DNA from: Bacteroidota bacterium
GTDB taxonomy: Bacteria; Bacteroidota; Bacteroidia; 2-12-FULL-35-15
Reading direction: 5' to 3'
Assembly: GCA_947447995.1 (NCBI GenBank)
Contig: CANFLQ010000005.1
Span: 1 to 61,275, forward strand
DNA: 61,275 bases
Shown here: positions 8,183 through 58,694 of the stretch, piece by piece
How positions within the stretch are numbered: the stretch's first letter is position 1
Layout of the letters: every line of letters starts with the position of its first letter
Translations under genes and position numbers: made by a program
Notes under the pieces: model-generated
Told to the model about the DNA's origin: nothing
Database searches by the model: none
The model's input: the letters and a program-made list of their open reading frames with translations, nothing else

Positions 8183-8217
8183 CAACTTTAAACTTTTCAA
8201 CTTTAAACTTTGAACTA
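8183..8217. repeat. Degenerate heptamer array (family 1, (C)AACTTT[AG]A)
   Basis: caactttaaacttttcaactttaaactttgaacta, just 3' of the GH3 stop on its coding strand. Confidence 0.75.
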
Positions 8218-8220
8218 AAT

Positions 8221-11148
8221 CTACTTCAACACCTCATACATCACTTCCTGTATTTTTGTACGAATACCCGATTTAGCTAATTTATTATCCTTAGCGCTAG
8301 GACAAACCCTGTTTGATAAAAAAATATAAACTAACTGATTAGAAGGATCGGCCCAAGCCAAGGTACCTGTAAAACCAGCATGTCCAAAACTTAAATAAGA
8401 TACACAACCACAAACCGGACTGTCTTTATCGGGGTTCATTTCCGGTTTATCAAAACCTATTCCTCTTCTATTGTCTTTACAATATTGGCATTTGGTAAAT
8501 TCGTTTACTATTGCTGAATCAAAATAACGTATACCTCCATACTCTCCTTTATTCATAAAAAGTTGCATTATTACGGCTAAATCGTTAGCATTAGAAAACA
8601 ATCCAGCATGACCGCCAACACCGCCAAGCATTGCTGCTCCTGGATCATGCACATCGCCATGTACCAATTGTTTTCTAAATTTTGTATCCAATTCCGTAGG
8701 CACTATTCTTTTCGGATCAAACCTATCGAGCGGTTTGTAACCCATTGTTGACAGACCTAAAGGAGCATAAAAATATTTAATAACATAACGTTCTTCAGGA
8801 ATAAAATTTTTCGCTTCAATAATTTTTTTTAAAAAATAATATCCCATATCACTGTAATGGTATTTGCCCATATCTTTTAAAGGCGATTCTATAATTTGTT
8901 TATAAATGGTATCTTCGTAAGCAGCAGTAATATATAATTTTTCAGCTACACGTCGTGGATATTCAAGCGTTCTAATATTGTTATAGATACCTGGTTTATA
9001 ATTATCATTTTCCATTGTTTTTACCCAAAATGGAATCCAATCTTTTAATCCAGCTTGATGTGTTAGCATTTCTCGCAATACAATATTTTCTTTATTACTG
9101 CCTTTTAATTGCGGTAAATATGTTCCTAAATGTTCGTCCATATTTATCTTTTTTTCATCTACTAATTTCATCACACAAGCAGTTGTGGCGGCTATTTTGG
9201 TAATGGATGCTAAATCATAAATATCATCGTTTTTTACAGGTATTTCATTATCATACGTATGATACCCAAACGATTTTTGGTAGATCACTTTCCCATTTTT
9301 TGCAATTAAGATCTGGCAACCCGGATATACCCTATTTTTTATACCCTCATTAGCTATACTATCAATTTTGTTTAATGCTTTTGAGTTGGCACCCAACTCC
9401 TCTGGAATGGTATATTTAAAACGAATAGCTTTTGTTTGAATGCCTGTACCTGCCGTATAATAAGCGCTTGGAGTAATTGGCAATTTACCTGAAGCGGCAA
9501 CACCACCAAATATAAGCTGTGCAGAATAACTGTTGCTCAAATCATTTTCTTCGTAACTCATTATTACCGCATCTGCAAATTGCAAACTATCCATTTTTGC
9601 AAGTATATAAGGGTTTGCCGATACATTTACAATCACCTTATTTTGTTTCATTACCAATTTGAGCATGTTCATTGCCTGTGCGGTTAACCCAAAATTTTTA
9701 TCCGGTTTATTATTGGAATTATTTATTTGTACAATTACCAAATTGTATTTTTTCAGTTGGGTTAGTACCGAATCAAATACATTTTGTTTTGCATCTTTAT
9801 CAATACCATAATGCTTGATAGGTGAATAATTAGAAAGGGTTTGCTGAAATACATTTACATCTTTATAACCAAGCGATAAAGAAGCAATTCTCAAAGTATC
9901 TAAATTTTGAAGCGGAATCAAATTATTTTTATTTTGTAATAAGGTCAATGAGGCTTCTGTTAATTTACGATTAATCAGCTCTGCTTGTGGTGAATTTAGA
10001 TCGGTATACAAATCTTTTACTTTTATTTTGGAATAGTGATTCAAGCCTGTCCACTGTTTTACCAATAAAATTTTCATACAACGTGTGTCAATTTCTTCCT
10101 GCGTAATTTCTCCACGTTCAATCGCTTTTTTAATTTCCTTAATAGCCGTTGGAACATCTTCAGCAAAAAGCAACACATCGTTTCCTGCAATCAGGGCTTT
10201 TGCATCCACTTCTCCAGGTTTATAAAATTTACTCACACCTTTCATATTCAACGCATCGGTAAATACCAATCCTTTAAAACCTAAGGTGTCTTTTAACAAA
10301 CCTGTTACTATTTTTTTAGTAAGTGTTGAGGCTTGATTAGTAGTTGTATCTAATGCTGGTATTGACAAATGAGCCACCATCATACTTCCTAAGCCTTGAG
10401 AAATTAATTCCTTAAAGGGGTATAATTCCAACGTATCTAAATGCTCTCTGGATGATTTTACTGTCGGTAAAGTTTTGTGCGAATCGCTATCTGTATCTCC
10501 GTGTCCGGGAAAATGTTTTGCATTGGCAAGCACTCCATTATCCTGCATTCCCTTCATGTACATTAACGATTTACGGGTAACGTTCATTTTATTTTCACCA
10601 AAGGAACGGTTACTGATAACAGGATTTAAAGGATTATTATTAATATCCACTACTGGAGCAAAATTTATTTGCATGCCCAAACGTTTACATTGGCGTGCTA
10701 TTTCAGCTCCCATTTCATAAACCAATGTATCATTTTGAATAGCTCCTAAGGTCATTTGACGAGGGAATTTAGTTGTACTATCCAATCGCATAGCCAAACC
10801 CCATTCCGCATCAATCGACATTAACAAAGGAACTTTTGAAATTGATTGATATATGTTTGCCTGATTTGCTTGCCTTTCTGGACCACCCTGAAAAAATATT
10901 AACCCTCCAATCTTATTATTAACTATTAGTTTTTTAATTTCTTTAATATGCACTTTATCTTTATTTGAATAAGCTGCAACCATAAACAGTTGAGCCAAAC
11001 GTTCTTCAGGCGTTAAGGATTTAAAAACAGAATCTGCCCAATGCGTATCTGACAAATAAAATGGCGGATCTTGAGCTGGAGTTTTAGGAGTAAAGCCTAC
11101 AAGCAAAATGGTAACAATTGAAAATATAAGAAATACGTATTTTTTCAT
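8221..11148 (-). CDS. GH3 beta-N-acetylhexosaminidase fused to a beta-lactamase-like serine hydrolase, with signal peptide
   Basis: GH3: SIDAEWGLAMR, RSFGEN, KHFPGHGDT, FTDALNM. C-terminal domain: DLASITK (SxxK), LTHQAGL, YSDMGY, GHAGFTGT. Confidence 0.92.
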   Translation of the reverse strand: MKKYVFLIFSIVTILLVGFTPKTPAQDPPFYLSDTHWADSVFKSLTPEERLAQLFMVAAYSNKDKVHIKEIKKLIVNNKIGGLIFFQGGPERQANQANIYQSISKVPLLMSIDAEWGLAMRLDSTTKFPRQMTLGAIQNDTLVYEMGAEIARQCKRLGMQINFAPVVDINNNPLNPVISNRSFGENKMNVTRKSLMYMKGMQDNGVLANAKHFPGHGDTDSDSHKTLPTVKSSREHLDTLELYPFKELISQGLGSMMVAHLSIPALDTTTNQASTLTKKIVTGLLKDTLGFKGLVFTDALNMKGVSKFYKPGEVDAKALIAGNDVLLFAEDVPTAIKEIKKAIERGEITQEEIDTRCMKILLVKQWTGLNHYSKIKVKDLYTDLNSPQAELINRKLTEASLTLLQNKNNLIPLQNLDTLRIASLSLGYKDVNVFQQTLSNYSPIKHYGIDKDAKQNVFDSVLTQLKKYNLVIVQINNSNNKPDKNFGLTAQAMNMLKLVMKQNKVIVNVSANPYILAKMDSLQFADAVIMSYEENDLSNSYSAQLIFGGVAASGKLPITPSAYYTAGTGIQTKAIRFKYTIPEELGANSKALNKIDSIANEGIKNRVYPGCQILIAKNGKVIYQKSFGYHTYDNEIPVKNDDIYDLASITKIAATTACVMKLVDEKKINMDEHLGTYLPQLKGSNKENIVLREMLTHQAGLKDWIPFWVKTMENDNYKPGIYNNIRTLEYPRRVAEKLYITAAYEDTIYKQIIESPLKDMGKYHYSDMGYYFLKKIIEAKNFIPEERYVIKYFYAPLGLSTMGYKPLDRFDPKRIVPTELDTKFRKQLVHGDVHDPGAAMLGGVGGHAGLFSNANDLAVIMQLFMNKGEYGGIRYFDSAIVNEFTKCQYCKDNRRGIGFDKPEMNPDKDSPVCGCVSYLSFGHAGFTGTLAWADPSNQLVYIFLSNRVCPSAKDNKLAKSGIRTKIQEVMYEVLK

Positions 11149-11189
11149 CAGAATATAATTTTTAGCGCCACGCTAAAATAACGTTTATG

Positions 11190-11229
11190 ATAGTTGAATT
11201 CCAATAACTTATTTCAACTTTTCAACTAT
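11190..11229. repeat. Inverted pair of family-1 arms (atagttgaa ... ttcaactat)
   Basis: Perfect 9-bp inverted repeat 11190-11198 / 11221-11229 with an extra ttcaact unit, between divergent genes. Confidence 0.6.
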
Positions 11230-11304
11230 TGAATGTTGATGGTTTAAATATTCTAAAAAGCAGATATTCAATTAATTTTGAAAAAAAATAATTATCCATT
11301 TTTT

Positions 11305-13504: not shown

Positions 13505-13527
13505 TTTAATCTTAGCTAAAAAAAGCT

Positions 13528-13565: not shown

Positions 13566-14444
13566 TTGGAAGCAAAAAAAGTAAATGTTGGATTGGTTCA
13601 GATGAACTGTTCAGCAGACAAAAAAAACAATCTTGAAAAAACAATTTTAAAGATTCGTGAAGCTGCATCAAAAGGTGCAGAAATTATATGTTTACAGGAG
13701 CTTTTTCTATCGCTTTACTTTTGCGATGTAGAAAACTACGATAACTTTGGACTTGCCGAAGCTATTCCCGGACCAACAACAGATGTACTTGGTAAACTAG
13801 CCGCTGAATTGAAAGTTGTTATTATTGCTTCTCTTTTCGAAAAACGTACGCAGGGTATTTATCACAATACAACCGCTGTGTTAGATGCCGACGGCACTTA
13901 TCTAGGAAAATACCGTAAAATGCACATTCCGGATGATCCGGCGTATTACGAAAAATTTTATTTCACTCCCGGCGATTTAGGCTACAAAGTATTTGAAACC
14001 AAATATGCAAAAGTAGGTGTGCTTATTTGCTGGGATCAATGGTACCCTGAAGCTGCCAGAATCACAGCGCTTATGGGGGCAGAAATACTGGTATACCCTA
14101 CCGCTATTGGTTGGGCTACATCGCAAGATGCAGAAACCAACGATGAACAATACAATGCATGGCAAACCATACAACGCAGTCACGCTGTGGCAAATGGAAT
14201 ACATGTGGTATCGGTTAACCGTGTTGGAAATGAGGCCGACATGCAGTTTTGGGGTGGTTCTTTTGTTTCTAACCCTTTCGGGAGATTATTATACAAAGCA
14301 TCGCACGACAAGGAAGAAATTCATGTGCAGGAACTGGACTTAAGCAAAACGGATAGTTACCGCATTCATTGGCCATTCCTCCGCGACAGAAGAATAGACT
14401 CTTATCAGCCTATTACCAAACGCTTTATTGATGAAGATAATTGA
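13566..14444 (+). CDS. aguB: Carbon-nitrogen hydrolase, N-carbamoylputrescine amidase-like
   Basis: Nitrilase triad ICLQELF / YRKMHIPDDP / LICWDQWYPE, adjacent to agmatine deiminase. Start probably TTG 13566 (track 13533). Confidence 0.85.
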   Translation: MEAKKVNVGLVQMNCSADKKNNLEKTILKIREAASKGAEIICLQELFLSLYFCDVENYDNFGLAEAIPGPTTDVLGKLAAELKVVIIASLFEKRTQGIYHNTTAVLDADGTYLGKYRKMHIPDDPAYYEKFYFTPGDLGYKVFETKYAKVGVLICWDQWYPEAARITALMGAEILVYPTAIGWATSQDAETNDEQYNAWQTIQRSHAVANGIHVVSVNRVGNEADMQFWGGSFVSNPFGRLLYKASHDKEEIHVQELDLSKTDSYRIHWPFLRDRRIDSYQPITKRFIDEDN

Positions 14445-14489
14445 TGTGCTGATTAATTGATGTGCTAATGTGCTGATTAATGGATGTGG
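14441..14489. repeat. Family-2 array (GATGTGCTGATT-like)
   Basis: ttgatgtgctgattaattgatgtgctaatgtgctgattaatggatgtgg, overlapping the aguB TGA stop. Confidence 0.8.
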
Positions 14490-14569
14490 ACATTGCAATT
14501 GAATTTTTTAAACGATATAACAATTGGATAGAAAGTTGAATTTTAGAGTTCGTGTGATTTACAAAACAC

Positions 14570-14619
14570 TTTGAACTTTGAACTTTGAACTTTGAACTTT
14601 AAACTTTGAACTTTTGAAC
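14570..14619. repeat. Family-1 heptamer array (TTTGAAC x about 7)
   Basis: tttgaac x4, tttaaac, tttgaac, t-tttgaac. The last unit contains the aguA TTG start. Opposing arm gaaagttgaattttagagttc at 14531-14551. Confidence 0.9.
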
Positions 14620-15663
14620 TTAGATATAACACCAAAACAATTAAATTACCGTTTTCCTGCTGAGTGGGAAAAACACCGTGCTACATGGCTTAGTTGGCCG
14701 CATAAAGTAGAATCGTGGCCTGGAAAAATTGAGAGCATTTACCCGATTTACGCTCAATTTATAAAAGCATTAACTGAAGGCGAACTTGTTTGCATCAACA
14801 TAAACAATGAACAGATAAAAGCTAAAGCTGTTCAGCACTTGGAAAAAAAAAATGTCGATCTAAGTAAAGTATTTTTTTACATTCACCCCACCAACGACGC
14901 CTGGTGTAGAGATCACGGGCCAAGCTTTTTAATTAACCCAAGTGCAGAAAATAAAAAAGTAATTATAGATTGGAATTACAATGCTTGGGGCAATAAATAT
15001 CCTCCATACGATTTGGATGATGTTATTCCAACGCTTATTGGCAATGAGTTTAATATTCCTGTATTTAATCCCGGCATTGTGATGGAAGGTGGCTCTGTTG
15101 AATTTAATGGCAAAGGAACACTGCTTACATCTAAGGCTTGTTTGCTTAACCCAAACAGAAATTCGCATTTGAATCAATCTCAAATAGAAAAATATTTAAG
15201 GGATTATTATTGTATCGATAACATACTTTGGGTAAACGATGGCATTGTTGGTGATGATACCGATGGACATATAGACGACATAACACGATTTGTAAATCAA
15301 GATACAGTTGTTACAGTTGTTGAACAGAACAAAAATGATGAAAATTATTTTATCCTAAAGGAGAATGTTGAACTACTTGAAAAAATGAACGTAGAAAATG
15401 GCAAACAATTAAACATTATCGAATTGCCGATGCCATCACCTGTAATATATGAAGGGCAGCGTTTGCCTGCCTCTTATGCAAATTTTTATATTGGTAATGC
15501 AGCAGTAGTTGTTCCCACATTTCGTGATAAAAACGATGACAAAGCATTGAATATTTTGCAAAAATGTTTCCCTGATCGTAAAGTGATTGGACTAGACTCT
15601 ACCGATATTATCTGGGGATTAGGAAGCTTTCATTGTTTAAGTCAGCAAGAGCCGGCTGTATAA
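14614..15663 (+). CDS. aguA: Agmatine deiminase (peptidyl-arginine deiminase family)
   Basis: RFPAEWEKH, DAWCRDHGP, MEGGSVEFNG, DDTDGHIDD, PASYANFYIGN, GSFHCLSQQEP motifs. Confidence 0.93.
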   Translation: MNLDITPKQLNYRFPAEWEKHRATWLSWPHKVESWPGKIESIYPIYAQFIKALTEGELVCININNEQIKAKAVQHLEKKNVDLSKVFFYIHPTNDAWCRDHGPSFLINPSAENKKVIIDWNYNAWGNKYPPYDLDDVIPTLIGNEFNIPVFNPGIVMEGGSVEFNGKGTLLTSKACLLNPNRNSHLNQSQIEKYLRDYYCIDNILWVNDGIVGDDTDGHIDDITRFVNQDTVVTVVEQNKNDENYFILKENVELLEKMNVENGKQLNIIELPMPSPVIYEGQRLPASYANFYIGNAAVVVPTFRDKNDDKALNILQKCFPDRKVIGLDSTDIIWGLGSFHCLSQQEPAV

Positions 15664-15668
15664 AAAGA

Positions 15669-15813
15669 ACCACTAAGACACTAAGAACGCTAAGGAACAC
15701 TTAGAATTTCTTAAATTTTAGTGGTAAATTTTAATAAAAAAATATTTTTTGTATACAAATAAATCTAAAATATTTTCTTTGTGTTTTCTCTGTGTTCTTA
15801 GTGCCTTAGTGGT
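15669..15813. repeat. 145-bp MITE-like element with 20-bp imperfect terminal inverted repeats
   Basis: accactaagacactaagaac (15669-15688) versus gttcttagtgccttagtggt (15794-15813), 1 mismatch. Arms built from CACTAAG-like units, AT-rich core. Confidence 0.75.
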
Positions 15814-15849
15814 AAAAACTTAATAAAATTTAATACCATTTAATCCATT

Positions 15850-22254: not shown

Positions 22255-22289
22255 ACTAATAACTAACCACTAATAACTAATAACTAAAT
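22255..22289. repeat. Family-3 heptamer array (ACTAA[TC][AC] x5)
   Basis: actaata actaacc actaata actaata actaaat, then c-ATG at 22291. Confidence 0.8.
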
Positions 22290-25352: not shown

Positions 25353-25429
25353 TTATTGCTAGATAAAAATGAATATTTAATTAGGCAAATGCAGTTCAAA
25401 GTTGAATGTTATTTATATTTTAAATTTAC

Positions 25430-26328: not shown

Positions 26329-26365
26329 CGTTAAAATTTTAAGGCAAAAATAGTCAATATTTTAA

Positions 26366-26482
26366 TAGTTATTAGTGAATAATTATTAGAGTTAAGTACC
26401 ACTTATTGATACTGAGTAAGGTGGAATCGAAAATAAGTTACTCCTAAGTATCTTCCTAATAACTAACAACTAACCACTAATT
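26366..26482. repeat. Inverted pair of family-3 arms between divergent genes
   Basis: tagttattag (26366-26375) pairs perfectly with ctaataacta (26456-26465). The right arm continues actaaca actaacc actaatt. Confidence 0.7.
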
Positions 26483-28092: not shown

Positions 28093-28206
28093 TTGATGTG
28101 CTTTTGTTAATGTGCTGATTTATTGATGTGCTGATTATCGATTAATTAATTTGCTGATTAATCGGTTGCTAAAACTTTAAACATTTGAACTCTCTAACGT
28201 TGAACT
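28093..28206. repeat. Composite array: family-2 arm (28093-28160) plus family-1 arm (28171-28206)
   Basis: ttgatgtgct...atgtgctgatt x2...ttgctgatt, then aaactttaaacatttgaactctctaacgttgaact. It fills the whole gap between the PKD stop and the rdgB start. Confidence 0.8.
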
Positions 28207-38278: not shown

Positions 38279-38322
38279 TTATAAAATTTTACTACTTCTA
38301 ATATCCTTAGTATAAATTAAAA

Positions 38323-39768: not shown

Positions 39769-39832
39769 TAAATAATAATTTATAAATCATTTAAGTCTAT
39801 TAATTAAAAACAGATTACTATTAACTAAAAAC

Positions 39833-40663: not shown

Positions 40664-40751
40664 TTTCACAATCAATAAACAATTTTAAATTAATCCTTTA
40701 CTAATAAATAAAACAACTTTAAATACAAATAGAATCGTTAACATCAAAACA

Positions 40752-42639: not shown

Positions 42640-43039
42640 CAAAATATACTTAAAAGGATTTAATAGTTTAATAGCTATAGGTGCAATAAACGTATTACTT
42701 GACCATATTGAACTAACAAAAAAAACTTAAATTTAATAATTTTCAAAACCCACCATTTTATAAAAACACTTCAGGTTATTTAGGACTTATTCTATTTTTT
42801 ATACTAAGCGGGGGTTTTTCATTACATTTGAAGACCCGTTAAATTATAATCATTCATTATTTCAACTAGCTAACGCAATTCATTGGCAAGTATTTGAATA
42901 GTGCTACTCAATATTTTTTACTAGGGATTCTTTTTTGAAATCAGTATGTTTTTTGAAAGGTTTTCAATGAAATCAGTATCTTCATTTTTGTTAAAAACGT
43001 TTAGGGCGCTATTAAATTAACAACACAATTACTAAAAAC

Positions 43040-44188
43040 TTGAATCATCCAATAAATATAGTTCACATTATCCCTAATCTCAGAAAAGGCGGTGCGGAAA
43101 GATTAGTTATAGATATTGTTTCTAAACTTTCAAAAAAAGATAATGTAAATATACGTTTAGTTTTACTTGAAAATAAAATAGAATTTGATGTAGTTAATAT
43201 CAAACAATTTATTCATATTGTTCAATCTAGTATTAAACTATCTTTTACAAAAAAGAACAAATTTGAAATTGATACACTTCAATCCTTTATAAACGATTTC
43301 AGGCCTAACATTATTCATACGCATTTATTTGAAGCGGAAATAATAAGTCGATCATGTTATTATCCGCATGCAAGATGGTATTCACATTGCCATAATAACA
43401 TGGTTCAGTTTCGAAACTTCGATATTAAAACTTTGTTTAATAAAAAATATTTAACCAATTATTATGAGAAAAAATATTTATTCAAATCATATCAAAAAAA
43501 TGGAGGAACTCACTTTATAGCAATTTCTGAGGACACAAATTATTATTTTGAAAAAAACGCGAAGCCATATACTGTTAAACTATTACAAAATGCTATAAAT
43601 TATAAACGATTTTATAAAAACGAAACTTCCGAAAAGTCTGATCCAACATTAAAGTTGATAAATGTAGGTTCTTTTCAAGATAAAAAAAACCAAGTTTTTT
43701 TACTTGAAGTTGCGCGAATTTTACAAACAAAATACTGTTTGTTTGAAATGCATTTTTTAGGGGATGGAGCAAATAGAAATAAGTTGGAGCAAAAAATAAA
43801 AGAGTATCAATTAGGAAAATTTATTTTTTTGCATGGTAACATAGAAAATGTAGAGAAATTTTTATGGCAATCGGATATCTATATTCATTCTGCCGCTAAT
43901 GAATCATTTGGTCTTGCTTTATTAGAAGCCATGGCTGCCGGACTCCCTGTAATTACCCTTGATGGTAAAGGAAACAGAGATTTGATAGAACAAGGCAAGA
44001 ACGGCTATATGCTATTTGAAGAAGATGCCGAAAAATTTGCTGATCTTATTATTGAACTGTGGAATGATAAAAACAAATATCAGGAAATATCAGCTTATGC
44101 CCAACAATTTTCAAAGCAATTTGAAATGAAAAATTATTGTATAAAACTGCTGGAAACATATACCTCTTCTCACAATTCAAGTATTTGA
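43040..44188 (+). CDS. GT4 glycosyltransferase
   Basis: IPNLRKGGAER, IIHTHL, NVGSFQDKKNQ, NESFGLALLEAMAAGLPV motifs. Confidence 0.9.
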   Translation: MNHPINIVHIIPNLRKGGAERLVIDIVSKLSKKDNVNIRLVLLENKIEFDVVNIKQFIHIVQSSIKLSFTKKNKFEIDTLQSFINDFRPNIIHTHLFEAEIISRSCYYPHARWYSHCHNNMVQFRNFDIKTLFNKKYLTNYYEKKYLFKSYQKNGGTHFIAISEDTNYYFEKNAKPYTVKLLQNAINYKRFYKNETSEKSDPTLKLINVGSFQDKKNQVFLLEVARILQTKYCLFEMHFLGDGANRNKLEQKIKEYQLGKFIFLHGNIENVEKFLWQSDIYIHSAANESFGLALLEAMAAGLPVITLDGKGNRDLIEQGKNGYMLFEEDAEKFADLIIELWNDKNKYQEISAYAQQFSKQFEMKNYCIKLLETYTSSHNSSI

Positions 44189-49435: not shown

Positions 49436-49442
49436 TTTTAAC

Positions 49443-51311
49443 ATGTGCGGAATTGCAGGATATTACAGCAATAACAGTTCGTTTTCAGAAACAGAATTAA
49501 AGGCGATGACCAATACTCTTGCTCATCGGGGACCTGATGCCAAAGGATATTTTATTGACGATACAATAGGCTTGGGACATAGACGATTAAGCATCATTGA
49601 TATATCAGCGTCTGCCAATCACCCTATGATATCGGGATGCGGGAGATATATTATCATTTACAACGGAGAGGTTTATAACTTCAAAGAAATTGCATTTCAA
49701 CTTAAACAACTTAAACCTTCTTTAAATTTTAAAACTACCTCCGATACCGAAGTTATTATAGAAGCCTTTACTCATTGGGGGGAACAATTTATTGAACAAC
49801 TTAATGGAATGTTTGCTTTTGCTATTTATGACAAAATAAATAAAGAATTATTTATTTATCGCGATAGACTAGGTATTAAACCCATTTATTATTTTTGGGA
49901 TGAAAACAATTTTATTTTCGCCTCCGAATTAAAATCCTTAAAGCAATTAAAAAACAAAATTAACTTTAAGATTAACCCTTTAGCTATCAACGAATTTTTA
50001 CACCTCGGATATATTCCTGAGCCTCATTCTATATACGAGAACATTCATAAACTACCATCGGGAACCTATTTTAAAATAAAGGGTAATCGTCTGATAAAGT
50101 GCCAATATTGGAATGCTCGGGATAAAATACAACCACAAATAGAAACCAACTTTACAAATGCCAAACAAACATTAACAAACTTAATCGAATCTTCGGTAAA
50201 ATACCGAATGGTAAGCGATGTACCTTTTGGAACATTTTTAAGCGGAGGCATCGATTCTAGTTTAGTAACTGCTGTAGCCCAAAAATTTTCTGACCAACCT
50301 ATCAATACCTTTTCAATAGGCTTCAAAGAAACAAAACAGAACGAAGCCGGATTTGCTAAAAATGTTGCCAAGCACTTAAAAACAAATCACTACGAATGGA
50401 TAGTTACTCAAAAAGAAGCCCTAAATCAGGTAAGTCAATTACCCGAAATTTATGATGAACCTTATGCCGATTCATCAGCAATCCCCACTTTAATTGTTTC
50501 ACAATTTGCAAAAAAGTATGTTAAAATGACCTTATCCGGCGATGGGGGTGATGAATTATTTATGGGGTACGGAGCTTACAAATGGGCTAAACGCCTTGCA
50601 ACCCCTTTACTTAATGTATTAGGAAAACCATTAGCTATGGGCTTATCAACGAGGGGTGAAAAATATAGAAAAGCAGAAGAACTGCTTAAATACAAAGATC
50701 CTGGTACTTTAAAAAGTCATATATTTTCACAAGAACAATCTCTGTTTTCAAGACAAGAAATAAAAAACTTAGTTCATCCCAATTTTTATACAGGAATCAA
50801 CCTGAATGAAAATTATGAAAACTTAAATCGCACTTTATTGCCTGAAGAACAGCAAGCCTTGTTCGACATTAATTATTATTTAAAAGATGATTTGTTAGTA
50901 AAAGTAGACAGAGCAACTATGCACCATTCATTAGAAACCAGAGTGCCCTTACTAGATTATCGCTTAGTAGAATTTGCACTCAATTTATCACCCAGCCTTA
51001 AACTTAAAAACGGAGAAGCTAAATATTTATTAAAACAAGTATTGTATGAATATGTACCAAAAAAACTGTTTGACAGACCCAAACAAGGGTTTTCAATACC
51101 TTTGGCAGATTGGCTTAAAAATGATTTACGATTTTTAATAGAAGATTATTTATCAGAAAAAACGATCAAAAAACACGGGATTGTTAATTATGAAATTGTT
51201 GCCGAATTAAAAAAACAATTTCTTATAAACAACAACAACTTTCTTTATAATAAAATATGGCTGTTGATAGTGTTACACCAATGGCTGGAAGCCAGTGTGC
51301 TGATTGCTTGA
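49443..51311 (+). CDS. asnB: Asparagine synthase (glutamine-hydrolysing)-type amidotransferase
   Basis: MCGIAG (Ntn Cys2), HRGPD, LGHRRLSIID, YNGEVYN, FLSGGIDSS, LSGDGGDELF, ETRVPLLD motifs. Confidence 0.93.
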   Translation: MCGIAGYYSNNSSFSETELKAMTNTLAHRGPDAKGYFIDDTIGLGHRRLSIIDISASANHPMISGCGRYIIIYNGEVYNFKEIAFQLKQLKPSLNFKTTSDTEVIIEAFTHWGEQFIEQLNGMFAFAIYDKINKELFIYRDRLGIKPIYYFWDENNFIFASELKSLKQLKNKINFKINPLAINEFLHLGYIPEPHSIYENIHKLPSGTYFKIKGNRLIKCQYWNARDKIQPQIETNFTNAKQTLTNLIESSVKYRMVSDVPFGTFLSGGIDSSLVTAVAQKFSDQPINTFSIGFKETKQNEAGFAKNVAKHLKTNHYEWIVTQKEALNQVSQLPEIYDEPYADSSAIPTLIVSQFAKKYVKMTLSGDGGDELFMGYGAYKWAKRLATPLLNVLGKPLAMGLSTRGEKYRKAEELLKYKDPGTLKSHIFSQEQSLFSRQEIKNLVHPNFYTGINLNENYENLNRTLLPEEQQALFDINYYLKDDLLVKVDRATMHHSLETRVPLLDYRLVEFALNLSPSLKLKNGEAKYLLKQVLYEYVPKKLFDRPKQGFSIPLADWLKNDLRFLIEDYLSEKTIKKHGIVNYEIVAELKKQFLINNNNFLYNKIWLLIVLHQWLEASVLIA

Positions 51312-51434
51312 TATGCTGATGTGCTAATTAACTAATAAGATGATCTAATACTACTTTATGATACGGTATTAATAACGATAAGTTAATGTATTTAATAATC
51401 GAAAATCAGCACATTAGTAATCAGCACATCAATT
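51295..51434. repeat. Inverted pair of family-2 arms between convergent stop codons
   Basis: gtgtgctgattgcttgatatgctgatgtgctaatt (51295-51329) versus aatcagcacattagtaatcagcacatcaatt (51404-51434). Confidence 0.85.
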
Positions 51435-52776
51435 AAACTCCCAACTTCTTCTTAAATTTTTGTTCGTACAAATACCTTAGTACAAATAAACTAGATACAA
51501 AAAACGGAATACACGGTATTTTTAAACGAACTAATGAGCCAAAATTAGAAGTAGCTATCCCAACAGAAAAGGCAAAGAATAGAGAAAAAATTACAGAAAA
51601 TAACAACAATGGCTTTTCACCAATCAACGTAAAAAATCCGAAAAACTTCAATCTAATTAGCAGTAATAAAGTTAACACCATTATATATGTATTTTCAAGA
51701 GCAGAAAGAAGCATTACCGGATTGCGAGCATCTAACAAGGTTGGTCTAAACAATGTAGCAGCGATGGCTAAATGCGCCTTGCTGGCAATACTACCAGCAG
51801 AAGCATCAAACTCACCAATATCAAAACTATTACCTCCATAATACTCACTTTTTTGATCTTTGTTAGAAATTACAGCTTTAGTTAATACCTTATCAACCGA
51901 ATAATCGCCTAAGGTATCACCCAACTTTGTTAAAATAAAAAAACCTACGCCAACTCCTATTGCAATAAAAAATGGTGCTAAAAATAACCTTAAAAATTTA
52001 CTCTTCACGTTTACCAAGCGTTGGTTTGCTAACCAAATAACAGAACCAGGAAGCAATGCAAACAAAATATACGGTTTAATTAACACTAATAATAGGGAAG
52101 AAATGAAAATAAAAAAAATGTATTTTATCTTGTAATTTTTCTTAACAAAAAAAACATAAAAATAATAGGTATACCAACCCACTGCGGAAAGTGTAATGGT
52201 ATCTTTTAGTAAACCTGAGCCCCAAAAAACTACCGATGGAATAAATAAAATTGAAATGGCAAATTGCTTCTCCAATGCAGGAAATTCTTCATTAAATAAT
52301 AGGAACAAACGCCAAATCCCTGTGTAACAAATCCAAGCTAAAAGTATAGAAGAAACCATAAAACTTTGAAAGGAAACCATAATCAGAGGAACAATCAAAC
52401 GAACAACCACCATAGCTTGTTTATCGAACATCATGTAACAATAACCTGTTTTATTATCAAAAACACTATAATTTTCCCAAGTAGTATTTCCCTTCATTAT
52501 GTCAAAAAAAACAGTGGGATTTTTACCAAATAATTTTACCAACGCCTGAGATGACATAAAATAATTTACAGTATCCCCGTCCTTATAATAAAACTGGTAT
52601 ATTAAACAAACTGCAATGGCACCAAAACATTTAACAATCAAACCGCGGGTATACCATTTATACAATGGCTGTTGCTGTTCATTTTTTTTACGAATATAAT
52701 TTCCAACAAAAAAAATAAACAATAAAAGAAAAGGAGTAAACAATAAATCGAAAATAGTAAGTACAAACGTATTCAT
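51433..52776 (-). CDS. Polytopic membrane protein, Wzy/polymerase-like
   Basis: About 11 TM segments with periplasmic loops (GDTVNY, FWGSGLLKDT, NFGSLVRLK), within the glycan locus. Function inferred from topology and context. Confidence 0.6.
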   Translation of the reverse strand: MNTFVLTIFDLLFTPFLLLFIFFVGNYIRKKNEQQQPLYKWYTRGLIVKCFGAIAVCLIYQFYYKDGDTVNYFMSSQALVKLFGKNPTVFFDIMKGNTTWENYSVFDNKTGYCYMMFDKQAMVVVRLIVPLIMVSFQSFMVSSILLAWICYTGIWRLFLLFNEEFPALEKQFAISILFIPSVVFWGSGLLKDTITLSAVGWYTYYFYVFFVKKNYKIKYIFFIFISSLLLVLIKPYILFALLPGSVIWLANQRLVNVKSKFLRLFLAPFFIAIGVGVGFFILTKLGDTLGDYSVDKVLTKAVISNKDQKSEYYGGNSFDIGEFDASAGSIASKAHLAIAATLFRPTLLDARNPVMLLSALENTYIMVLTLLLLIRLKFFGFFTLIGEKPLLLFSVIFSLFFAFSVGIATSNFGSLVRLKIPCIPFFVSSLFVLRYLYEQKFKKKLGV

Positions 52777-52871: not shown

Positions 52872-54110
52872 ATGAATGTTATCTATATATCTTATGACGG
52901 AATGACCGACCCTCTAGGGCAATCACAAGTGATTCCCTATTTGATTGGGTTAACAAAAATTGGGCATACAATAGCCATCATAAGCTGTGAAAAAAAAGAT
53001 AATTTTGAAAAACATCAGTCATTTATTAAACAGTTATTACAGGTCAATACTATTAACTGGCATCCTGTCCCTTACTCATCATTACCTTCTATATTATCCA
53101 AGCAAATTAACCTATTCCGTATTCAACAAAAAGCAAATCAACTTTATAAAATAAACAACCCAGATATAATACATTGTCGAAGTTATATGGCAGCATTGGT
53201 TGGAAATACGTTAAAAAACAAATACGGTGTTAAATTTATTTTTGATATGCGCGGCTTTTGGGCCGATGAGCGCGTTGATGGGCATATATGGGATTTAAAA
53301 AAAACGATACATCAAAAGGTCTACCATTTTTTTAAGAAAAAAGAATTGGAATTTCTACAAAATGCCGATCACACCATCAGTTTAACTCAAAATGCCAAAG
53401 ACGAAATTTTAAGTTGGACTTCATTAAAAAACAAATCCATTCCAATAACCATTATTCCCTGCTGCGTTGACCTTAATCTTTTTACAACTAAAAATATTGC
53501 CCCTACTCATCAACAAAATATAAAAATTCAATTAAATATAAGTCCCGATGATTTTATAATATCATACCTAGGTTCTATCGGAACATGGTATATGTTGGAA
53601 GAAATGCTGGATTTTTTTAAACTACTTACTTCCAAATATAAAAATGCAAAGTTCCTTTTCATTACGCAGGATAATCAACAACACATTTTCTCACTAGCTG
53701 CAAGTAAGGGAATTTCTAAAAAACGGCTTATCATTCATTCAGCATCAAGAAATGAAGTGCCAATATATTTGAGTATTTCTCATTTATCTATATATTTTAT
53801 AAAACAAGCCTATTCTAAAAAAGCCTCCTCCCCCACCAAAACAGGAGAAATAATGGCAATGGGCATTCCTATAATCACCAATTCAGGAATTGGCGATAGT
53901 GATAAAATTATTTCGGAATCAGGAGCTGGTGCACTGATAAATAGCTTTACAGAAAAGGAATACCTTCGTATAATTGAACAAATTGACGTACTTTTAAAGT
54001 CGGATAAAACAAAAATAAGAGATGCGGCATTTAAGTACTTTTCACTTGAAAACGGAGTTGAATTGTATGATGATGTTTATGAGAAAGTAATAAACATTGA
54101 ACGCAGATGA
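52872..54110 (+). CDS. GT4 glycosyltransferase
   Basis: YISYDGMTDPLGQSQV, IHCRSY, FDMRGFWADER, YLGSIGTWY, SSPTKTGEIMAMG motifs. Confidence 0.88.
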   Translation: MNVIYISYDGMTDPLGQSQVIPYLIGLTKIGHTIAIISCEKKDNFEKHQSFIKQLLQVNTINWHPVPYSSLPSILSKQINLFRIQQKANQLYKINNPDIIHCRSYMAALVGNTLKNKYGVKFIFDMRGFWADERVDGHIWDLKKTIHQKVYHFFKKKELEFLQNADHTISLTQNAKDEILSWTSLKNKSIPITIIPCCVDLNLFTTKNIAPTHQQNIKIQLNISPDDFIISYLGSIGTWYMLEEMLDFFKLLTSKYKNAKFLFITQDNQQHIFSLAASKGISKKRLIIHSASRNEVPIYLSISHLSIYFIKQAYSKKASSPTKTGEIMAMGIPIITNSGIGDSDKIISESGAGALINSFTEKEYLRIIEQIDVLLKSDKTKIRDAAFKYFSLENGVELYDDVYEKVINIERR

Positions 54111-54177
54111 CGCAGAAAAAAAAATTTAAAAGAATTTCGATAACTAAAGCCAACTTTAAACTTTGAAACTTTGAACT
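54101..54177. repeat. Composite array: ACGCAGATG 9-mer arm over the GT4 stop plus a family-1 arm over the galE start
   Basis: acgcagatgacgcaga (54101-54116) and caactttaaactttgaaactttgaact (54151-54177). Confidence 0.7.
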
Positions 54178-55214
54178 TATTAAAAAACACCGTACTAGTT
54201 ACAGGAGGAGCTGGATACATTGGCTCTCACACCATTATTGAATTACTGGAAAATACCAATTTCAATATTATTTCCATTGATAATTATTCCAACTCTTCAG
54301 CTAAAACATTTGATAGAATTGAAAAAATAACCGGCAAAAAAGTACGCAATTACAATGTAGACATTTGTAATAAACAAGAGCTATCTAACATTTTTGAAAC
54401 AGAGAAAAATATTGTAGGAATTATTCATTTCGCAGCCTTTAAATCAGTACCCGAATCAGTATATAACCCCTATAAATACTACAACAACAACATAAATTCA
54501 TTATTAAATATACTGGAATGTTGTTTAAAATTTAATATCGATAATTTTATTTTTTCTTCTTCATGTTCTGTTTATGGCAATATCAACCAATTGCCTGTAA
54601 AGGAAAACACTCCGTTTAGTAATGCCGAATCGCCTTATGCTGCTACCAAACAAATGGGAGAAACAATACTTAAAGATTACAACAACGCATACCCTCAATT
54701 GCAAAGTATCGCCTTGCGTTATTTTAACCCTGTGGGTGCTCATATTTCAGGATTGATTGGTGAAGATCCAATCAACAAACCTACCAGCTTAGTTCCTGTT
54801 ATTACACAAACTGCTATTGGAAAAATAAAACAAATGACGGTACATGGCACCACTTACACTACAAGAGACGGCTCCTGTATTCGAGACTATATACACGTTA
54901 CCGACATTGCCATTGCACACACCAAGGCTTTGGAATACATCATTCATAAAAAACAAAAAAGCAATTATTCCATTTTTAATTTAGGAACAGGCAATGGTGT
55001 TAGTGTTTTGGAAGCCATTCATGCTTTTGAAAAGATCGGCAACAAAAAATTAAATTACACAATAGGTCCAAAAAGAGAAGGTGATGTTGAAGCCATTTAT
55101 TCCGACACAACGCTATCTGAAAAAGAATTGGGCTGGAAAACCAAATTCAATTTGAATCAAATGATGGAAAGTGCTTGGAAATGGGAGTTACAATTGGCTA
55201 AGGAGATGTGCTGA
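54171..55214 (+). CDS. galE: UDP-glucose 4-epimerase
   Basis: VTGGAGYIGSH, IHFAAFKSV.ES, FSSSCSVYG, YAATK, LRYFNPVGAH, IRDYIHV motifs. Confidence 0.95.
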   Translation: MNLLKNTVLVTGGAGYIGSHTIIELLENTNFNIISIDNYSNSSAKTFDRIEKITGKKVRNYNVDICNKQELSNIFETEKNIVGIIHFAAFKSVPESVYNPYKYYNNNINSLLNILECCLKFNIDNFIFSSSCSVYGNINQLPVKENTPFSNAESPYAATKQMGETILKDYNNAYPQLQSIALRYFNPVGAHISGLIGEDPINKPTSLVPVITQTAIGKIKQMTVHGTTYTTRDGSCIRDYIHVTDIAIAHTKALEYIIHKKQKSNYSIFNLGTGNGVSVLEAIHAFEKIGNKKLNYTIGPKREGDVEAIYSDTTLSEKELGWKTKFNLNQMMESAWKWELQLAKEMC

Positions 55215-55249
55215 TTTTTTGATGTGATGGTGTGCTGATTTTTTTGATT
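55204..55249. repeat. Family-2 array over the galE stop
   Basis: agatgtgctgattttttgatgtgatggtgtgctgatttttttgatt. The galE TGA lies inside the first unit. Confidence 0.8.
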
Positions 55250-55274
55250 ATCAATTGGATTTTATTGTAAAGCA

Positions 55275-55373
55275 TGCTTGCGTAATTCTGTGCCAATAAT
55301 TATCGGGATTGATTCAGAATCTGAGCGATGGCTTACCCGTAGATTCTGAATCAAGTTCAGGATGACGCAAGCA
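55275..55373. repeat. Palindromic MITE/REP-like element with a nested mini-palindrome
   Basis: Inner stem ttgattcagaatct / agattctgaatcaa (14 bp perfect), outer stem tgcttgcgt / acgcaagca (9 bp perfect). Confidence 0.8.
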
Positions 55374-55435
55374 CAAATTATCATTGCTAAAATCCTCCTT
55401 ATTTCTTAACTTTACATTAACTTAAACAATATAAT

Positions 55436-57652
55436 ATGCATGAACAACAAGTAATTGACGTTGAAGGTGAAAAAAAAGAAATACTAAAGCGTTATCGCTC
55501 ACTCCTCCACGCATGCCGAAGAACGCTTGAAAAAGGAGATAAGCTTCTTATCCGGAAAGCCTTTGACATTTCCTTGGAGGCGCATAAAAATATGCGCAGA
55601 AAATCGGGCGAACCATACATATATCATCCCATTGCTGTTGCCCAAATATGCGCCGAAGAAATTGGGTTAGGCACTACTTCCGTAGTTTGTGCCTTATTAC
55701 ATGATGTAGTAGAAGATACGGAACTTACTATTGAAGATATTCAACGTTTATTTGGTGAAAAGGAAGCCAAAATTATTGACGGGCTAACAAAAATATCAGG
55801 AGTATTTGACCAAAGTTCTTCCCTACAAGCAGAGAACTTCCGTAAGATGTTACTCACCTTATCTGACGATGTACGTGTTATCCTTATTAAACTTGCCGAC
55901 CGCACACACAACATGCGTACGCTGGATAGTATGAAGCGCGACAAACAATTAAAAATTGCTTCTGAAACACTATACTTATATGCTCCACTAGCCCACCGTT
56001 TGGGATTAAATGCCATTAAAACCGAATTAGAAGATTTAGGCTTAAAATATACCGAACCGGATAGCTACAACGAAATAGCGCAACGCTTAAAAGAAACGGA
56101 ACCCGAACGTAAAAAATTTATCTCCAAATTCATTGTTCCCATAAAGGAAATACTGGAAGAGGAAGGAATGAAATTTAAAATTATCGGTCGGCCGAAATCC
56201 ATTTCGTCTATCAATAACAAAATAAAAACCAAAGGAGTTACCTTCGATGAGATATTTGATTTGTTTGCCATTCGGATAATTATTGAATCGGAATCAGAAA
56301 GCGAAAAGTCGGACTGTTGGCGCGTTTACTCCATGGTAACTGATTTTTATCACCCCAACCCAGAGCGCTTACGCGATTGGATATCCAGCCCTAAAGCCAA
56401 TGGATATGAAAGTTTACATGCCACTGTAATGGGTCCCGAAGGTAAATGGGTGGAAGTGCAAATTAGGACGGTACGAATGGATGAATTAGCTGAAAAAGGC
56501 TATGCCGCCCACTGGAAATACAAAACAAGTGGTGCCGAAAACCAATTAGACGATTGGATTAGAAAAATTAGAGAAGTACTGGAAAGTCCGGAAGAAAATG
56601 CGATGGACTTTATTGATGATTTCAAACTCAACTTATTTGCTGAAGAAATTTTTGTATTCACACCTTCCGGCGAACTAAAAACCCTACCGGTTAACTCTAC
56701 TGCGCTAGATTTTGCATTCGACATTCACACACAAGTGGGGGAAAAATGTATTGGAGCTAAGATAAATCACAAACTAGTACCGCTAAGCTACAAACTCAAA
56801 AGCGGTGATCAGGTAGAAATCCTTACCTCAACCAAACAAACACCAAAGGAAGATTGGTTAAGTTTTGTAGTTTCAGCAAATGCTAAATCAAAGATAAAAA
56901 ATGCCCTCAAAGAAGAAAGACGTAAAGTTGCCGACGAAGGGAGGGAAATACTGGAAAGTAAATTCAATCATTTAAAAATAGACTTTACCGTTTCCAATAT
57001 TACCGATTTAGCAAACTTTTTTAAATTACCCAGTAATCAGGAGCTCTTTTACCGTATTGCAGTTGGCAATATCAACCTTAAACATTTAAAAGATTTTCAT
57101 CAGGAAAAAGGGAAAATTGCTCACAAATCAGGCATCATCAAAAAAGCAGAACCTGCTAAATCGCTAGAGCAAATGGTTACTGCAGCCCGCGGTAAATCTG
57201 ACATGTTGGTTATTGGCGAAAACCTTCAAAAATTTGATTATAAGCTTTCACCTTGCTGTAACCCCATTTCGGGAGATGATGTTTTTGGTTTTATAACCAT
57301 CAACGAAGGAATTAAAATACACCGCGTAAATTGTCCCAATGCAATTCAGTTATTATCCAACTACGCATATCGCGTGGTAAAAGCAAAATGGACTAGCCAA
57401 GAACTTATATCCTTCCTTGCTGGAATAAAAATTACTGGAATTGATGAAGTAGGGTTGGTAAACAACATCACCAAAATTATTTCTAACGAACTCAACGTAA
57501 ACATGCGCTCCATTAGTTTTGATAGCAATGATGGCACTTTTGAAGGAACAGTGATGGTATTTGTACATGATACCAACCACTTGACCGACCTCATGAAAAA
57601 ACTCAAAAAAGTACATGGGGTACTTTCGGTTACACGTATGGATGGAAATTAA
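55436..57652 (+). CDS. relA: Bifunctional (p)ppGpp synthetase/hydrolase (long RSH)
   Basis: RKSGEPYIYHP, HDVVEDT (HD), IKLADRTHNMRTL, DLFAIR, GYESLH, EVQIRT, TGS (DFAFDIHT) and ACT domains. Confidence 0.95.
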   Translation: MHEQQVIDVEGEKKEILKRYRSLLHACRRTLEKGDKLLIRKAFDISLEAHKNMRRKSGEPYIYHPIAVAQICAEEIGLGTTSVVCALLHDVVEDTELTIEDIQRLFGEKEAKIIDGLTKISGVFDQSSSLQAENFRKMLLTLSDDVRVILIKLADRTHNMRTLDSMKRDKQLKIASETLYLYAPLAHRLGLNAIKTELEDLGLKYTEPDSYNEIAQRLKETEPERKKFISKFIVPIKEILEEEGMKFKIIGRPKSISSINNKIKTKGVTFDEIFDLFAIRIIIESESESEKSDCWRVYSMVTDFYHPNPERLRDWISSPKANGYESLHATVMGPEGKWVEVQIRTVRMDELAEKGYAAHWKYKTSGAENQLDDWIRKIREVLESPEENAMDFIDDFKLNLFAEEIFVFTPSGELKTLPVNSTALDFAFDIHTQVGEKCIGAKINHKLVPLSYKLKSGDQVEILTSTKQTPKEDWLSFVVSANAKSKIKNALKEERRKVADEGREILESKFNHLKIDFTVSNITDLANFFKLPSNQELFYRIAVGNINLKHLKDFHQEKGKIAHKSGIIKKAEPAKSLEQMVTAARGKSDMLVIGENLQKFDYKLSPCCNPISGDDVFGFITINEGIKIHRVNCPNAIQLLSNYAYRVVKAKWTSQELISFLAGIKITGIDEVGLVNNITKIISNELNVNMRSISFDSNDGTFEGTVMVFVHDTNHLTDLMKKLKKVHGVLSVTRMDGN

Positions 57653-57684
57653 CTTTTAACTTTTAAACTTTAAACTTTAAACTA
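57651..57684. repeat. Family-1 array between relA and fur
   Basis: aacttttaacttttaaactttaaactttaaacta. Confidence 0.75.
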
Positions 57685-57722
57685 AATATTTTCTTACTTT
57701 TATACCTTAATTTTTACAGAAG

Positions 57723-58193
57723 ATGTTAGTGGTAGATACCAAAGAAACAGTTAAACAAATTTTTTCAGCGTTCCTTGCCAAACAGGGGCATCGTAAAACA
57801 CCAGAACGGTTTGCCATTTTAAATGAAATCTACTCGCAAGGTGGGCACTTTGATATTGAATCGCTTTACATTCAAATGAAGAACAAAAAGTACAGAGTTA
57901 GTCGGGCTACTCTATACAACACAATAGAATTACTACTATCCTGTAATCTAGTAACTAAACACCAGTTCGGTAAAAATTTAGCCCAGTTCGAAAAATCGCA
58001 TGAATTTAAACAACACGACCATTTGATTTGTCAGGACTGCGAAAAGGTATTTGAATTTTGTGATCCACGTATCCAGCAAATACAAAAAACAGCAGGCGAA
58101 ATGCTTGGATTTGAAATAGAACACCATTCACTTAATTTATTTGGGAAATGCAGCAAACTTGCCAAAAATGGAATTTGCGAACATAAAAAATAA
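57723..58193 (+). CDS. fur: Fur-family transcriptional regulator
   Basis: [41 protein letters not shown]...FGKC motifs. Confidence 0.92.
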
Positions 58194-58269
58194 ATATTCA
58201 ACCTATTTTTAATTTATATTTACATTATCCTAGTTTTTGAGTTTTATTAATAATTTAATTTTTTGACAC

Positions 58270-58623
58270 ATGACATTTGAATACCAAACCAGTAAAAAAA
58301 ATAAAATCAATATCATTCAACTTTCAGGTGAATTAATTGATAGAAACCAAGCATCAACAATGCTTACAGAAATTGAAGATGCTATTACTGTCGGTGAAAC
58401 TAAATTTTTACTTAACCTTCAAGATTTGAAATATATTAATAGCAGCGGACTTAATGTACTTATCAATGTTTTAACAAAAGCTCGTAAAGCTGGCGGAGAT
58501 TTAGCTGTATGTAATGTAAACAGTAAAATATCCCAATTAATGACTATCACTAAGTTGGATACTATTTTCAATGTAAGTATCGACGAAACTAGTGCTTACA
58601 ACAAACTTATTAGTGCTAATTAA
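58270..58623 (+). CDS. STAS-domain protein (anti-anti-sigma factor-like)
   Basis: LNLQDLKYINSSGLNVLI (D..SSG phospho-Ser motif) and ITKLDTIF. Confidence 0.88.
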   Translation: MTFEYQTSKKNKINIIQLSGELIDRNQASTMLTEIEDAITVGETKFLLNLQDLKYINSSGLNVLINVLTKARKAGGDLAVCNVNSKISQLMTITKLDTIFNVSIDETSAYNKLISAN

Positions 58624-58654
58624 CACATAAAATTATACTAAAATAATAAATTAG

Positions 58655-58694
58655 AGTTTGAAAAAGTTGAATTAAACTTAAGCTTTTTCAAACT
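58655..58694. repeat. Perfect 12-bp inverted repeat (family-1-like arms, possibly a terminator)
   Basis: agtttgaaaaag (58655-58666) / ctttttcaaact (58683-58694). Confidence 0.65.

Follow-up and report, generated by a model that had tools for sequence, protein, structure and literature searches.

Polarized heptamer arrays at gene junctions of a Bacteroidota genome as probable arms of small palindromic cassettes linked to PF05635 and GxxExxY genes

Contig CANFLQ010000005.1 (C5; 61,275 nucleotides, analysed at full length and called here the window) of the Bacteroidota bacterium assembly GCA_947447995.1 carries between its genes short tandem runs of degenerate 7-8-nucleotide (nt) words, whose orientation follows the neighbouring start and stop codons. 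What are these arrays, and from where does their polarity originate? A reading made from the DNA letters only (the sequence-only reading) had located them at 12 or more junctions, and regarded them as left and right arms of cassettes that insert at gene boundaries and whose cargo is absent here. Thirteen junctions have been read and analysed with Tandem Repeats Finder, and all the arrays lie at, or within a few bases of, the positions then given. The same words bracket cargo genes elsewhere in the genome and in congeners. It is thus probable that the arrays are arms, intact or eroded to one half, of small palindromic cassettes between genes, which at other loci enclose a gene of the PF05635 or of the GxxExxY type.

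The assembly (G000; 3.08 Mb, 207 contigs, 34% GC) carries markers of gliding and of the type IX secretion system, or T9SS (GldC-like, Por_Secre_tail), which assign it to Bacteroidota. A simple longest-ORF procedure called 2623 open reading frames (ORFs), covering 89% of the genome; stop coordinates are exact, and start coordinates, the calls being crude, are approximate. Arrays were counted over the 1786 intergenic spacers of at least 40 nt, using mononucleotide shuffles as control. Sixty congeners, denoted by codes such as G010, G062 and G051 and hosting 0-15 PF05635 genes each, form the comparison set. Folding was performed with RNAfold, and spacer z values were scored against shuffles. Family F1 is made of the words AACTTTR / YAAAGTT, read from the sequence at eight window sites, F2 of GATGTGCTGAT and F3 of ACTAAYM. 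Two more families have CACNNAG heptamers and GAACGCAGA words. The latter two had been described as 9-mer types, at 15669 and 54101; arrays are present at both positions, but those at 15669 are CACNNAG heptamers.

Scanning the genome against shuffled intergenic sequence, as proposed along with the sequence-only reading, revealed 88 F1 arrays versus 1.3 in the shuffles, 45 versus 0.3 for F2, 16 versus 0.2 for F3, and 13 versus 0.0 for CACTAAG. The non-random orientation noticed in the window is a feature of the whole genome. Arrays pointing inward and outward are 70:18 for F1 (p=2e-8) and 44:1 for F2 (p=3e-12), and further genome-wide counts are 14:2 and 11:2. After stops, F2 is read on the coding strand in 27 of 28 cases, and F1 (AACTTT) as antisense in 25 of 36; before starts, F2 is antisense in 16 of 16 cases, and F1 on the coding strand in 46 of 52. 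This orientation is valid at co-directional, convergent and divergent junctions, and on both strands. An unbiased scan of 7-mers at spacer ends gave similarly skewed inward:outward ratios for GTGCTGA (83:5), CAAAGTT (143:11), CACTAAG (55:3) and CGAATAG (34:0). Arms lie close to coding sequences, the median distance from the nearest coding end being 8-12 nt. Left F1 arms are flanked by 16 stops and 19 starts, right ones by 35 starts and 13 stops; the corresponding figures for F2 are 17 stops and 9 starts (left), 11 stops and 8 starts (right). A word is found after stops, and its reverse complement before starts, because the spacer is, or was, a palindrome, which reads alike from either strand. 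Start/stop polarity is a geometric property of the spacer, not a separate property of the genes, and what looked like a polarity code is reduced to geometry.

Both arms are found in 19 of the F1 spacers of the genome, one full and one weak arm in 10, a single arm in 35, and F2 spacers are similarly distributed. One array of 17 F2 units, spanning 270 nt (C67:15843-16113), is close to the end of its contig. Contigs end in arrays in nine cases for F1, three for F2 and two for F3, and therefore these repeats probably break the assembly. An F1 hairpin at C8:11545-11901 fills the spacer before a 59-aa ORF resembling ribosomal protein L30, and therefore lies inside a ribosomal-protein operon.

Seven genes of cargo type have been identified in G000, three coding for PF05635 (four-helix-bundle) and four for PF13366 (GxxExxY) proteins, and word-array arms of matching families are found on both sides of six of them. 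At C196:1240-1665 the GxxExxY gene is bracketed by CCACTAAGGCACGGAG... and ...CTCCGTGCCTTAGTGG, which feature the CACNNAG word of the window hairpin 15670-15812, and that of C159 has arms made of CACATAG, a word of the same type. The GxxExxY genes C60:11982-12386 and C21:16530-16985 are flanked by GAACGCRGA words, the type found at 54097 in the window. The PF05635 gene of C12 lies between F2 arms, and that of C68 between F3-like CTAATAACTA/CGAATAG arms, the words of which (TAGTTAT / CGAATAG) were read as one RGAATAG-type family. The seventh gene (C171) has AATCCGMAATC-type words at both sides, in a relative orientation that is unsettled. The flanking of four-helix-bundle and GxxExxY genes by such arms, which the sequence-only reading had suggested, is thus borne out at six loci of G000 and in congeners. 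Similarity among the four GxxExxY proteins follows the word: those with arms of one word group are 67% and 44% identical, and those of different groups 31-37%.

In congeners, inverted word-array arms surround at least 13 of the 16 PF05635 cassettes inspected for inverted repeats, and the arms could be aligned for 28 of 30 sampled cassettes. The cargo gene is read in the direction of the neighbouring genes or operon. F1 arms bracket a clade of 140-aa PF05635 proteins in G009, G010, G011, G062 and G068, at three or more junctions; the upstream stop is found directly before the left arm, and the downstream ATG within a few bases after the right arm. F2 arms similarly bracket the C12-type PF05635 clade in G002, G022 and G041. 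No F1-clade cargo gene was found in G000, and therefore its 88 F1 arrays are orphans.

In a maximum-likelihood tree of 29 cargo proteins each arm word is confined to one clade: GAGATNT has 12 members, GTATCAR 5, GGATATTAGATNT 2, GTTGTTR 3, RGAATAG 2, TAGTCTT 1 and AAAGTTY (F1) 4. Support is 99-100% for four of the six multi-member clades, and 86/94 for the GTATCAR clade. The four F1 rows are on the root split, and TAGTCTT is a single row on a long branch. Arms have a median length of about 33 nt, and typically host about five words (28 cassettes). Two solved homologues of the four-helix cargo (2gsc, 2rld) have five chains per entry. The coincidence hints at one protein ring per arm; it is a lead, not evidence.

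Occupants of orthologous junctions vary. At the relA|fur junction G010 and G062 hold a full F1 hairpin, stretching from the relA stop to just before fur, while in G000 the right F1 arm only is found, on the relA stop. The array at 57651, called ambiguous in the sequence-only reading, is accordingly the right arm of an F1 hairpin. Most congeners feature at this site a plain GC stem plus T-run terminator, so that the array stands where relatives carry a terminator. In G051 the junction (L037, about 1330-1512) hosts a run of the exact TAACTGA heptamer, the word described by MacGregor (2015). A part of one alignment, consisting of unflipped minus-strand loci, was not used in the relA|fur comparison. 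Between the thiolase and acyl-CoA dehydrogenase genes a GTATCAR cassette with cargo is found in five species and a GGATATTAGAT cassette with cargo in two; in G000 no gene is present, and the arms are of two kinds, F2 on the left and AGTAATT-type on the right. Upstream of the thiolase gene, ten species host a GAGATNT cassette with cargo, and G000 GC-rich filler after the same ...GGKILRN stop. In the beta-oxidation operon of congeners (L061-L090) three consecutive junctions, the third being enoyl-CoA hydratase|3-hydroxyacyl-CoA dehydrogenase, each carry a four-helix-bundle cassette with its own word. Each of these cassettes keeps its site in 3-12 species, which makes some of the cassettes long-lived residents.

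At the junction between the rseP-like gene and the next gene G010 has F1 arms with cargo, and G000 RGAATAG arms without a gene and with a stray F1 word in the loop. At PAD|hrpB both arms are CACTAAG in G000 and CACGGAG/CTCCGTG in G010; both having changed, the element was therefore either replaced as a whole or changed in a concerted way. Nesting is seen at C127:1347-1712, where a CACATAG hairpin lies within an F1 loop. A gene-less F2 hairpin (C12:24734-24858) is found beside the intact F2 cargo gene, and its loop retains 39 nt of the cargo 5' end (95% identical). Unit numbers differ between orthologous arrays. The outermost arms stay because they abut coding sequences, so that polarity survives the loss of the partner by nesting, replacement or internal deletion.

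F1 double-words range from 0 to 625 per genome within the genus (151 in G000, 264 in G010), and counts of control words are 0-10 in all but two genomes. Genomes that host F1-clade cargo have a median of 33 double-words, and the others of 8 (one-sided Mann-Whitney p=5e-4, no phylogenetic correction). Such burst-like copy number characterizes repeat elements and not conserved regulatory motifs. The words are nearly absent from many congeners that retain the same neighbouring genes.

The data are plausibly accounted for as follows. In each arm a degenerate word of 7-8 nt is repeated in tandem about 3-7 times, and the partner arm is the reverse complement of this run. The full-length member encloses one small gene, coding for either a PF05635 or a GxxExxY (PD-(D/E)XK-type, PF13366) protein, with one word family per cargo clade. 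The window copies, all gene-less, include a few complete hairpins, most having been cut to one arm or to arms of two families, presumably by internal deletion and because cassettes replaced one another, or nested, at a given junction. Spread and turnover of the elements would take place in DNA, as in populations of REPINs (hairpins made of repetitive extragenic palindromes, REPs) or of miniature inverted-repeat transposable elements (MITEs). Word arrays may be recognition sites for the cognate cargo protein or for a host factor, and could grow and shrink by slippage until coding sequence is reached. Any hairpin arising in read-through RNA would be incidental or put to secondary use, and the likeness of the arms would not be due to it. 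We consider it rather likely that the cassettes are DNA-level selfish or semi-domesticated elements with protein-recognition-word arms, the gene-less copies of which spread and erode in the manner of REPINs or MITEs. A role of the cognate cargo protein as the agent is a tentative suggestion, and more doubtful.

Several observations weigh against this picture. By tblastn with seven cargo proteins and blastn with the F2 cassette, a cargo remnant was found in one empty loop, that of C12; therefore most gene-less copies may never have held a gene. The filled and empty alleles that the sequence-only reading proposed to look for at orthologous junctions took the form of different occupants, filled and gene-less ones included, but no clean pair with identical boundaries was found among the compared congeners, none of them a near-identical strain. 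No insertion event was seen in the same set, and no target-site duplication was evident, on inspection by eye, at the outer boundaries of the cassettes read. For most families the word-clade match is confounded with shared genomic position, that is, with vertical inheritance of the cassette. A spread dependent on cargo is at odds with 11 of the 19 F1-rich genomes, which lack F1 cargo. Moreover, G exceeds C in the 5' arm of all the 28 four-helix cassettes analysed, from seven word families, and geometry does not require it. Closing of all reading frames by the G-rich 5' arm was considered and rejected as a general explanation: stop triplets are 3.4 versus 2.3 per arm (p=0.03), a difference driven by GAGATNT and reversed in GTATCAR and F1.

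The sequence-only reading had left room for an RNA-structure system, in which stems formed in read-through transcripts are selected, either for processing by RNase III or for protection or insulation of neighbouring cistrons. The architecture and the cargo family match ORF-bearing intervening sequences (IVSs) of rRNA, whose excision is performed by RNase III (PMC4990558). Hairpins that are complete have a high stability (-27 to -59 kcal/mol), and often fill the whole stop-to-start spacer in operons, including rpsE|rpmD and beta-oxidation junctions; the cargo is co-oriented with its neighbours, and the two arms of one junction have changed words jointly between G000 and G010. Selection for pairing in sense RNA predicts an excess of G·U among the mismatches, and a better fold for the sense than for the antisense strand. 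Neither is the case. In 30 cargo cassettes, with fold energies from -14 to -59 kcal/mol (mean -39.5), sense and antisense duplexes score -39.5 and -39.3, the sense being better in 16 of 30 (p=0.72), and 18 mismatches of G·U type stand against 30 of A·C type. The corresponding figures for 45 palindromic, co-directional spacers of G000 are 60:56, with fold energies of -53.6 and -54.4. Transversions exceed transitions in both sets (84:48 in cassettes, 153:116 in G000 spacers), and arm mismatches, by eye, fall mostly at degenerate word positions. In about two thirds of the spacers with an array no full array of that family stands opposite, copy number varies more than 100-fold among congeners, and an Rfam search of the window retrieved no RNA family match and no rRNA. 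The long hairpins of the sequence-only reading are formed by complete copies, but arrays are still foldable at 3-4 of the 13 window junctions only, the remainder consisting of single or heterologous arms, and a sense-strand G·U bias is missing. To judge from these comparisons, the conserved item is the word on each arm, and not the pairing of bases. Inverted arrays of recognition sites, as found at some transposon ends, fit the data, and a selected RNA helix fits them poorly; we regard the latter as unlikely, even if stems may still form in RNA and be cut.

Sites for a regulator, or leader sequences, as proposed for TAACTGA heptamer repeats, would explain why arms end 7-30 nt upstream of start codons, why F1 arms adjoin starts more than stops (54 versus 29), and the likeness to the layout, forward before start and reverse after stop, described for a Bacteroidetes genome by MacGregor in 2015 (PMC4679880). 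Yet the same words equally follow stops in opposite orientation and form inverted pairs, they are tied to specific cargo clades, the neighbouring genes are functionally unrelated, and many congeners keep these genes in the near absence of the words, all of which makes this explanation very improbable. Mobilization by the REP-associated tyrosine transposases (RAYTs; IS200-like, Y1) of G000 itself is suggested by the presence of three Y1_Tnp genes, each flanked by inverted repeats, and by the same layout of one clade, one repeat family and many gene-less hairpins. It is largely refuted by the flank sequences: RAYT genes are bordered by other, GC-rich palindromes (e.g. GCTCCGTAGGAGCGACCTGT), whereas F1-F3 and CACNNAG words flank PF05635 and PF13366 genes. 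Slippage does act, as unit numbers vary between orthologous arrays; as the sole cause in AT-rich spacers, or as plain chance with no element involved, it is refuted by the 70- to 150-fold excess over shuffles, by strict polarity at scores of unlinked junctions, and by arms that are inverted, paired and linked to cargo. Intrinsic (Rho-independent) terminators were also considered and discarded, as the arms are AT-rich word arrays followed by A-rich sequence and not a GC stem plus a T run.

The three RAYT-type genes of G000 (C32:4171-4713, C4:49691-50188, C172:2627-3220) have GC-rich inverted repeats of their own, GTTGGTCGGGATTTGCAATCCCGACC being another example, and words from at least the C32 repeats are among the most spacer-enriched 8-mers of the genome. 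A classical REP/RAYT layer coexists with heptamer cassettes in G000.

The window arrays are listed in Table 1. Folds better than shuffles are found in four spacers (15658-15855, 51306-51438, 58618-58739 and 55209-55441). The last (z=-3.7) contains, at 55272-55374 between the F2 arm and relA/spoT, a GC-rich nested hairpin, GCATGCTTGCGTAA...GATTCAGAATCT...AGATTCTGAATC...GACGCAAGCAC, which belongs to a repeat family other than F1-F3. Three window genes have their stop codon within repeat units; from these stops and from the SVLIA tail of AsnB, it follows that cassettes have rewritten the C-termini of housekeeping proteins.

Table 1. Word arrays at the gene junctions of the window (positions on C5).
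Position	Element	Context	Fold and relatives
8183-8219	F1 right-type arm (AACTTTR), single	1 nt from stop of minus-strand gene 8221-11148	spacer unfolded, z=+0.3
11190-11229	small F1-like hairpin, ATAGTTGAA ... TTCAACTAT	divergent spacer	z=-2.1
14441-14489	F2 left arm, no F2 partner	first unit contains CN-hydrolase TGA stop 14442-14444	kept in G010 with different unit numbers
14532-14623	F1 element; weak left words 14532-14551, right arm 14567-14623 (7-8 units)	before PAD-type deiminase gene	arrangement also present in G010
15670-15812	complete gene-less CACNNAG hairpin; left arm 15670-15704, loop 72 nt, right arm 15777-15812		-48.2 kcal/mol, z=-7.0 (spacer 15658-15855)
22255-22287	F3 right-type arm, single, ACTAAYM x5	3 nt upstream of ATG at 22291	
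25394-25410	weak F1 left-type remnant, GTTCAAAGTTGAA		
26349-26481	F3-type element; left words TAGTTATTAGTG 26349-26397, right arm 26455-26481	divergent spacer	weak fold, z=-0.9
28093-28164	F2 left arm of heterologous pair	7 nt from Ham1 gene start codon (28086)	pair 28093-28208: no fold, z=-0.5
28171-28208	F1 right-type arm of heterologous pair	4-nt overlap with stop of T9SS-tailed PKD protein gene	as above
51295-51436	complete gene-less F2 hairpin; arms 51295-51332 and 51402-51436	between convergent genes; left arm encodes the last five residues of AsnB (SVLIA) and stop (51295-51311); right arm overlaps stop of minus-strand gene ending 51433	z=-3.5 (spacer 51306-51438)
54097-54116	left arm of GAACGCAGA (GxxExxY-type) family	contains glycosyltransferase TGA stop 54108-54110	
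54151-54179	F1 right-type arm	upstream of epimerase/dehydratase gene	
55203-55252	F2 left arm, single	contains epimerase TGA stop 55212-55214	
57649-57686	F1 right arm; left arm and loop gone	directly on relA/spoT stop codon	
58653-58699	short F1 hairpin	upstream of purA	z=-2.5 (spacer 58618-58739); paired F1 left-/right-type words at corresponding position near purA in G010, G062 (junction unaligned)

The cassettes resemble, and differ from, several known systems. Like REPINs and their RAYTs, they feature many gene-less spacer hairpins, zero or one bracketed protein gene, a repeat family for each protein clade, and copy numbers that differ widely among relatives; unlike them, the cassette protein is not a Y1 transposase, and AT-rich word arrays take in the arms the place of a single GC-rich palindrome. 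As MITEs, they are short, gene-less, intergenic, have inverted ends and outnumber any coding copy. They differ from MITEs because there is no transposase-encoding parent, no target-site duplication was seen (by eye), and the ends are word arrays and not unique terminal inverted repeats. Intergenic heptamers arranged as direct repeats are also known in cyanobacteria, as the short tandemly repeated repetitive (STRR) sequences. Repeats of TAACTGA have been reported in Beggiatoaceae, Cyanobacteria and Bacteroidetes, in direct arrays with a possible translational role (MacGregor 2015, PMC4679880). TAACTGA and STRR repeats share with the cassette arms the tandem 7-mers in spacers, forward before starts and reversed after stops, the patchy distribution and the indels in 7-nt steps. 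The published work, in the sections consulted, draws no link to inverted partner arms or to PF05635/GxxExxY genes (PMC4679880), and TAACTGA differs from the cassette words, the array in G051 excepted.

The closest counterparts of the filled copies are the ORF-bearing IVSs of 23S rRNA in Coxiella burnetii and Leptospira, which host the 'S23p' ORF, are excised by RNase III, and have been discussed in terms of selfishness and reductive evolution (PMC4990558). In both, a long inverted-repeat stem surrounds a small PF05635 ORF, and filled elements measure about 0.4-0.5 kb. In contrast, the cassettes lie between protein-coding genes, and IVSs in helix 25/45 of 23S rRNA. The cassettes have, moreover, arms made of degenerate heptamers, many word families per genome and a second cargo type, GxxExxY. 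Most of their copies are gene-less or one-armed, and the link to PF05635 holds for the families and not for the window copies. Many PF05635 genes of congeners (several of the loci L009-L104) feature one or two in-frame stops, in line with the reductive evolution that the ORF of the Coxiella IVS is reported to undergo. No literature linking word-array arms to these cargo genes was found in a search that was incomplete, and in part based on titles and abstracts.

By analogy, it may tentatively be supposed that PF05635 and PF13366 proteins each recognise their own 7-nt word arrays, forming widespread protein-plus-repeat systems comparable to REPINs and RAYTs, of which rRNA IVSs would represent a special landing site, and TAACTGA/STRR repeats the gene-less progeny. 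If so, four-helix bundles annotated as '23S rRNA IVS protein' and GxxExxY proteins, which are very common and have no assigned function, would gain a genomic context. Puzzling intergenic heptamer repeats and the two protein families would in turn become one kind of spacer-filling element, found also within essential operons. The pairing offered is a concrete one, each protein clade with its own word.

Other elements and genes are worth mentioning. A gene for a 109-aa GIY-YIG nuclease, located at C8:41170-41499 of G000, lies between perfect 33-nt inverted repeats, GTTGTCAGTTCGAGCGTAGTCGAGAACGTGTGT; this locus is a third kind of small nuclease-in-palindrome cassette. An inverted repeat related to GTTGTCAGTTCGAGCGTAGTCGAGAACGTGTGT flanks an aspartyl-protease-like gene at C14:6520-6948. 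In the window, the region at about 36000-44000 has a GC content of 23-26%, versus about 33% in the rest, and may be a horizontally acquired block. The minus strand at 22593-25352 encodes a complete MmeI-type restriction-modification fusion protein, featuring N-terminal, helicase-spacer, methyltransferase, target recognition (TRD) and C-terminal domains.

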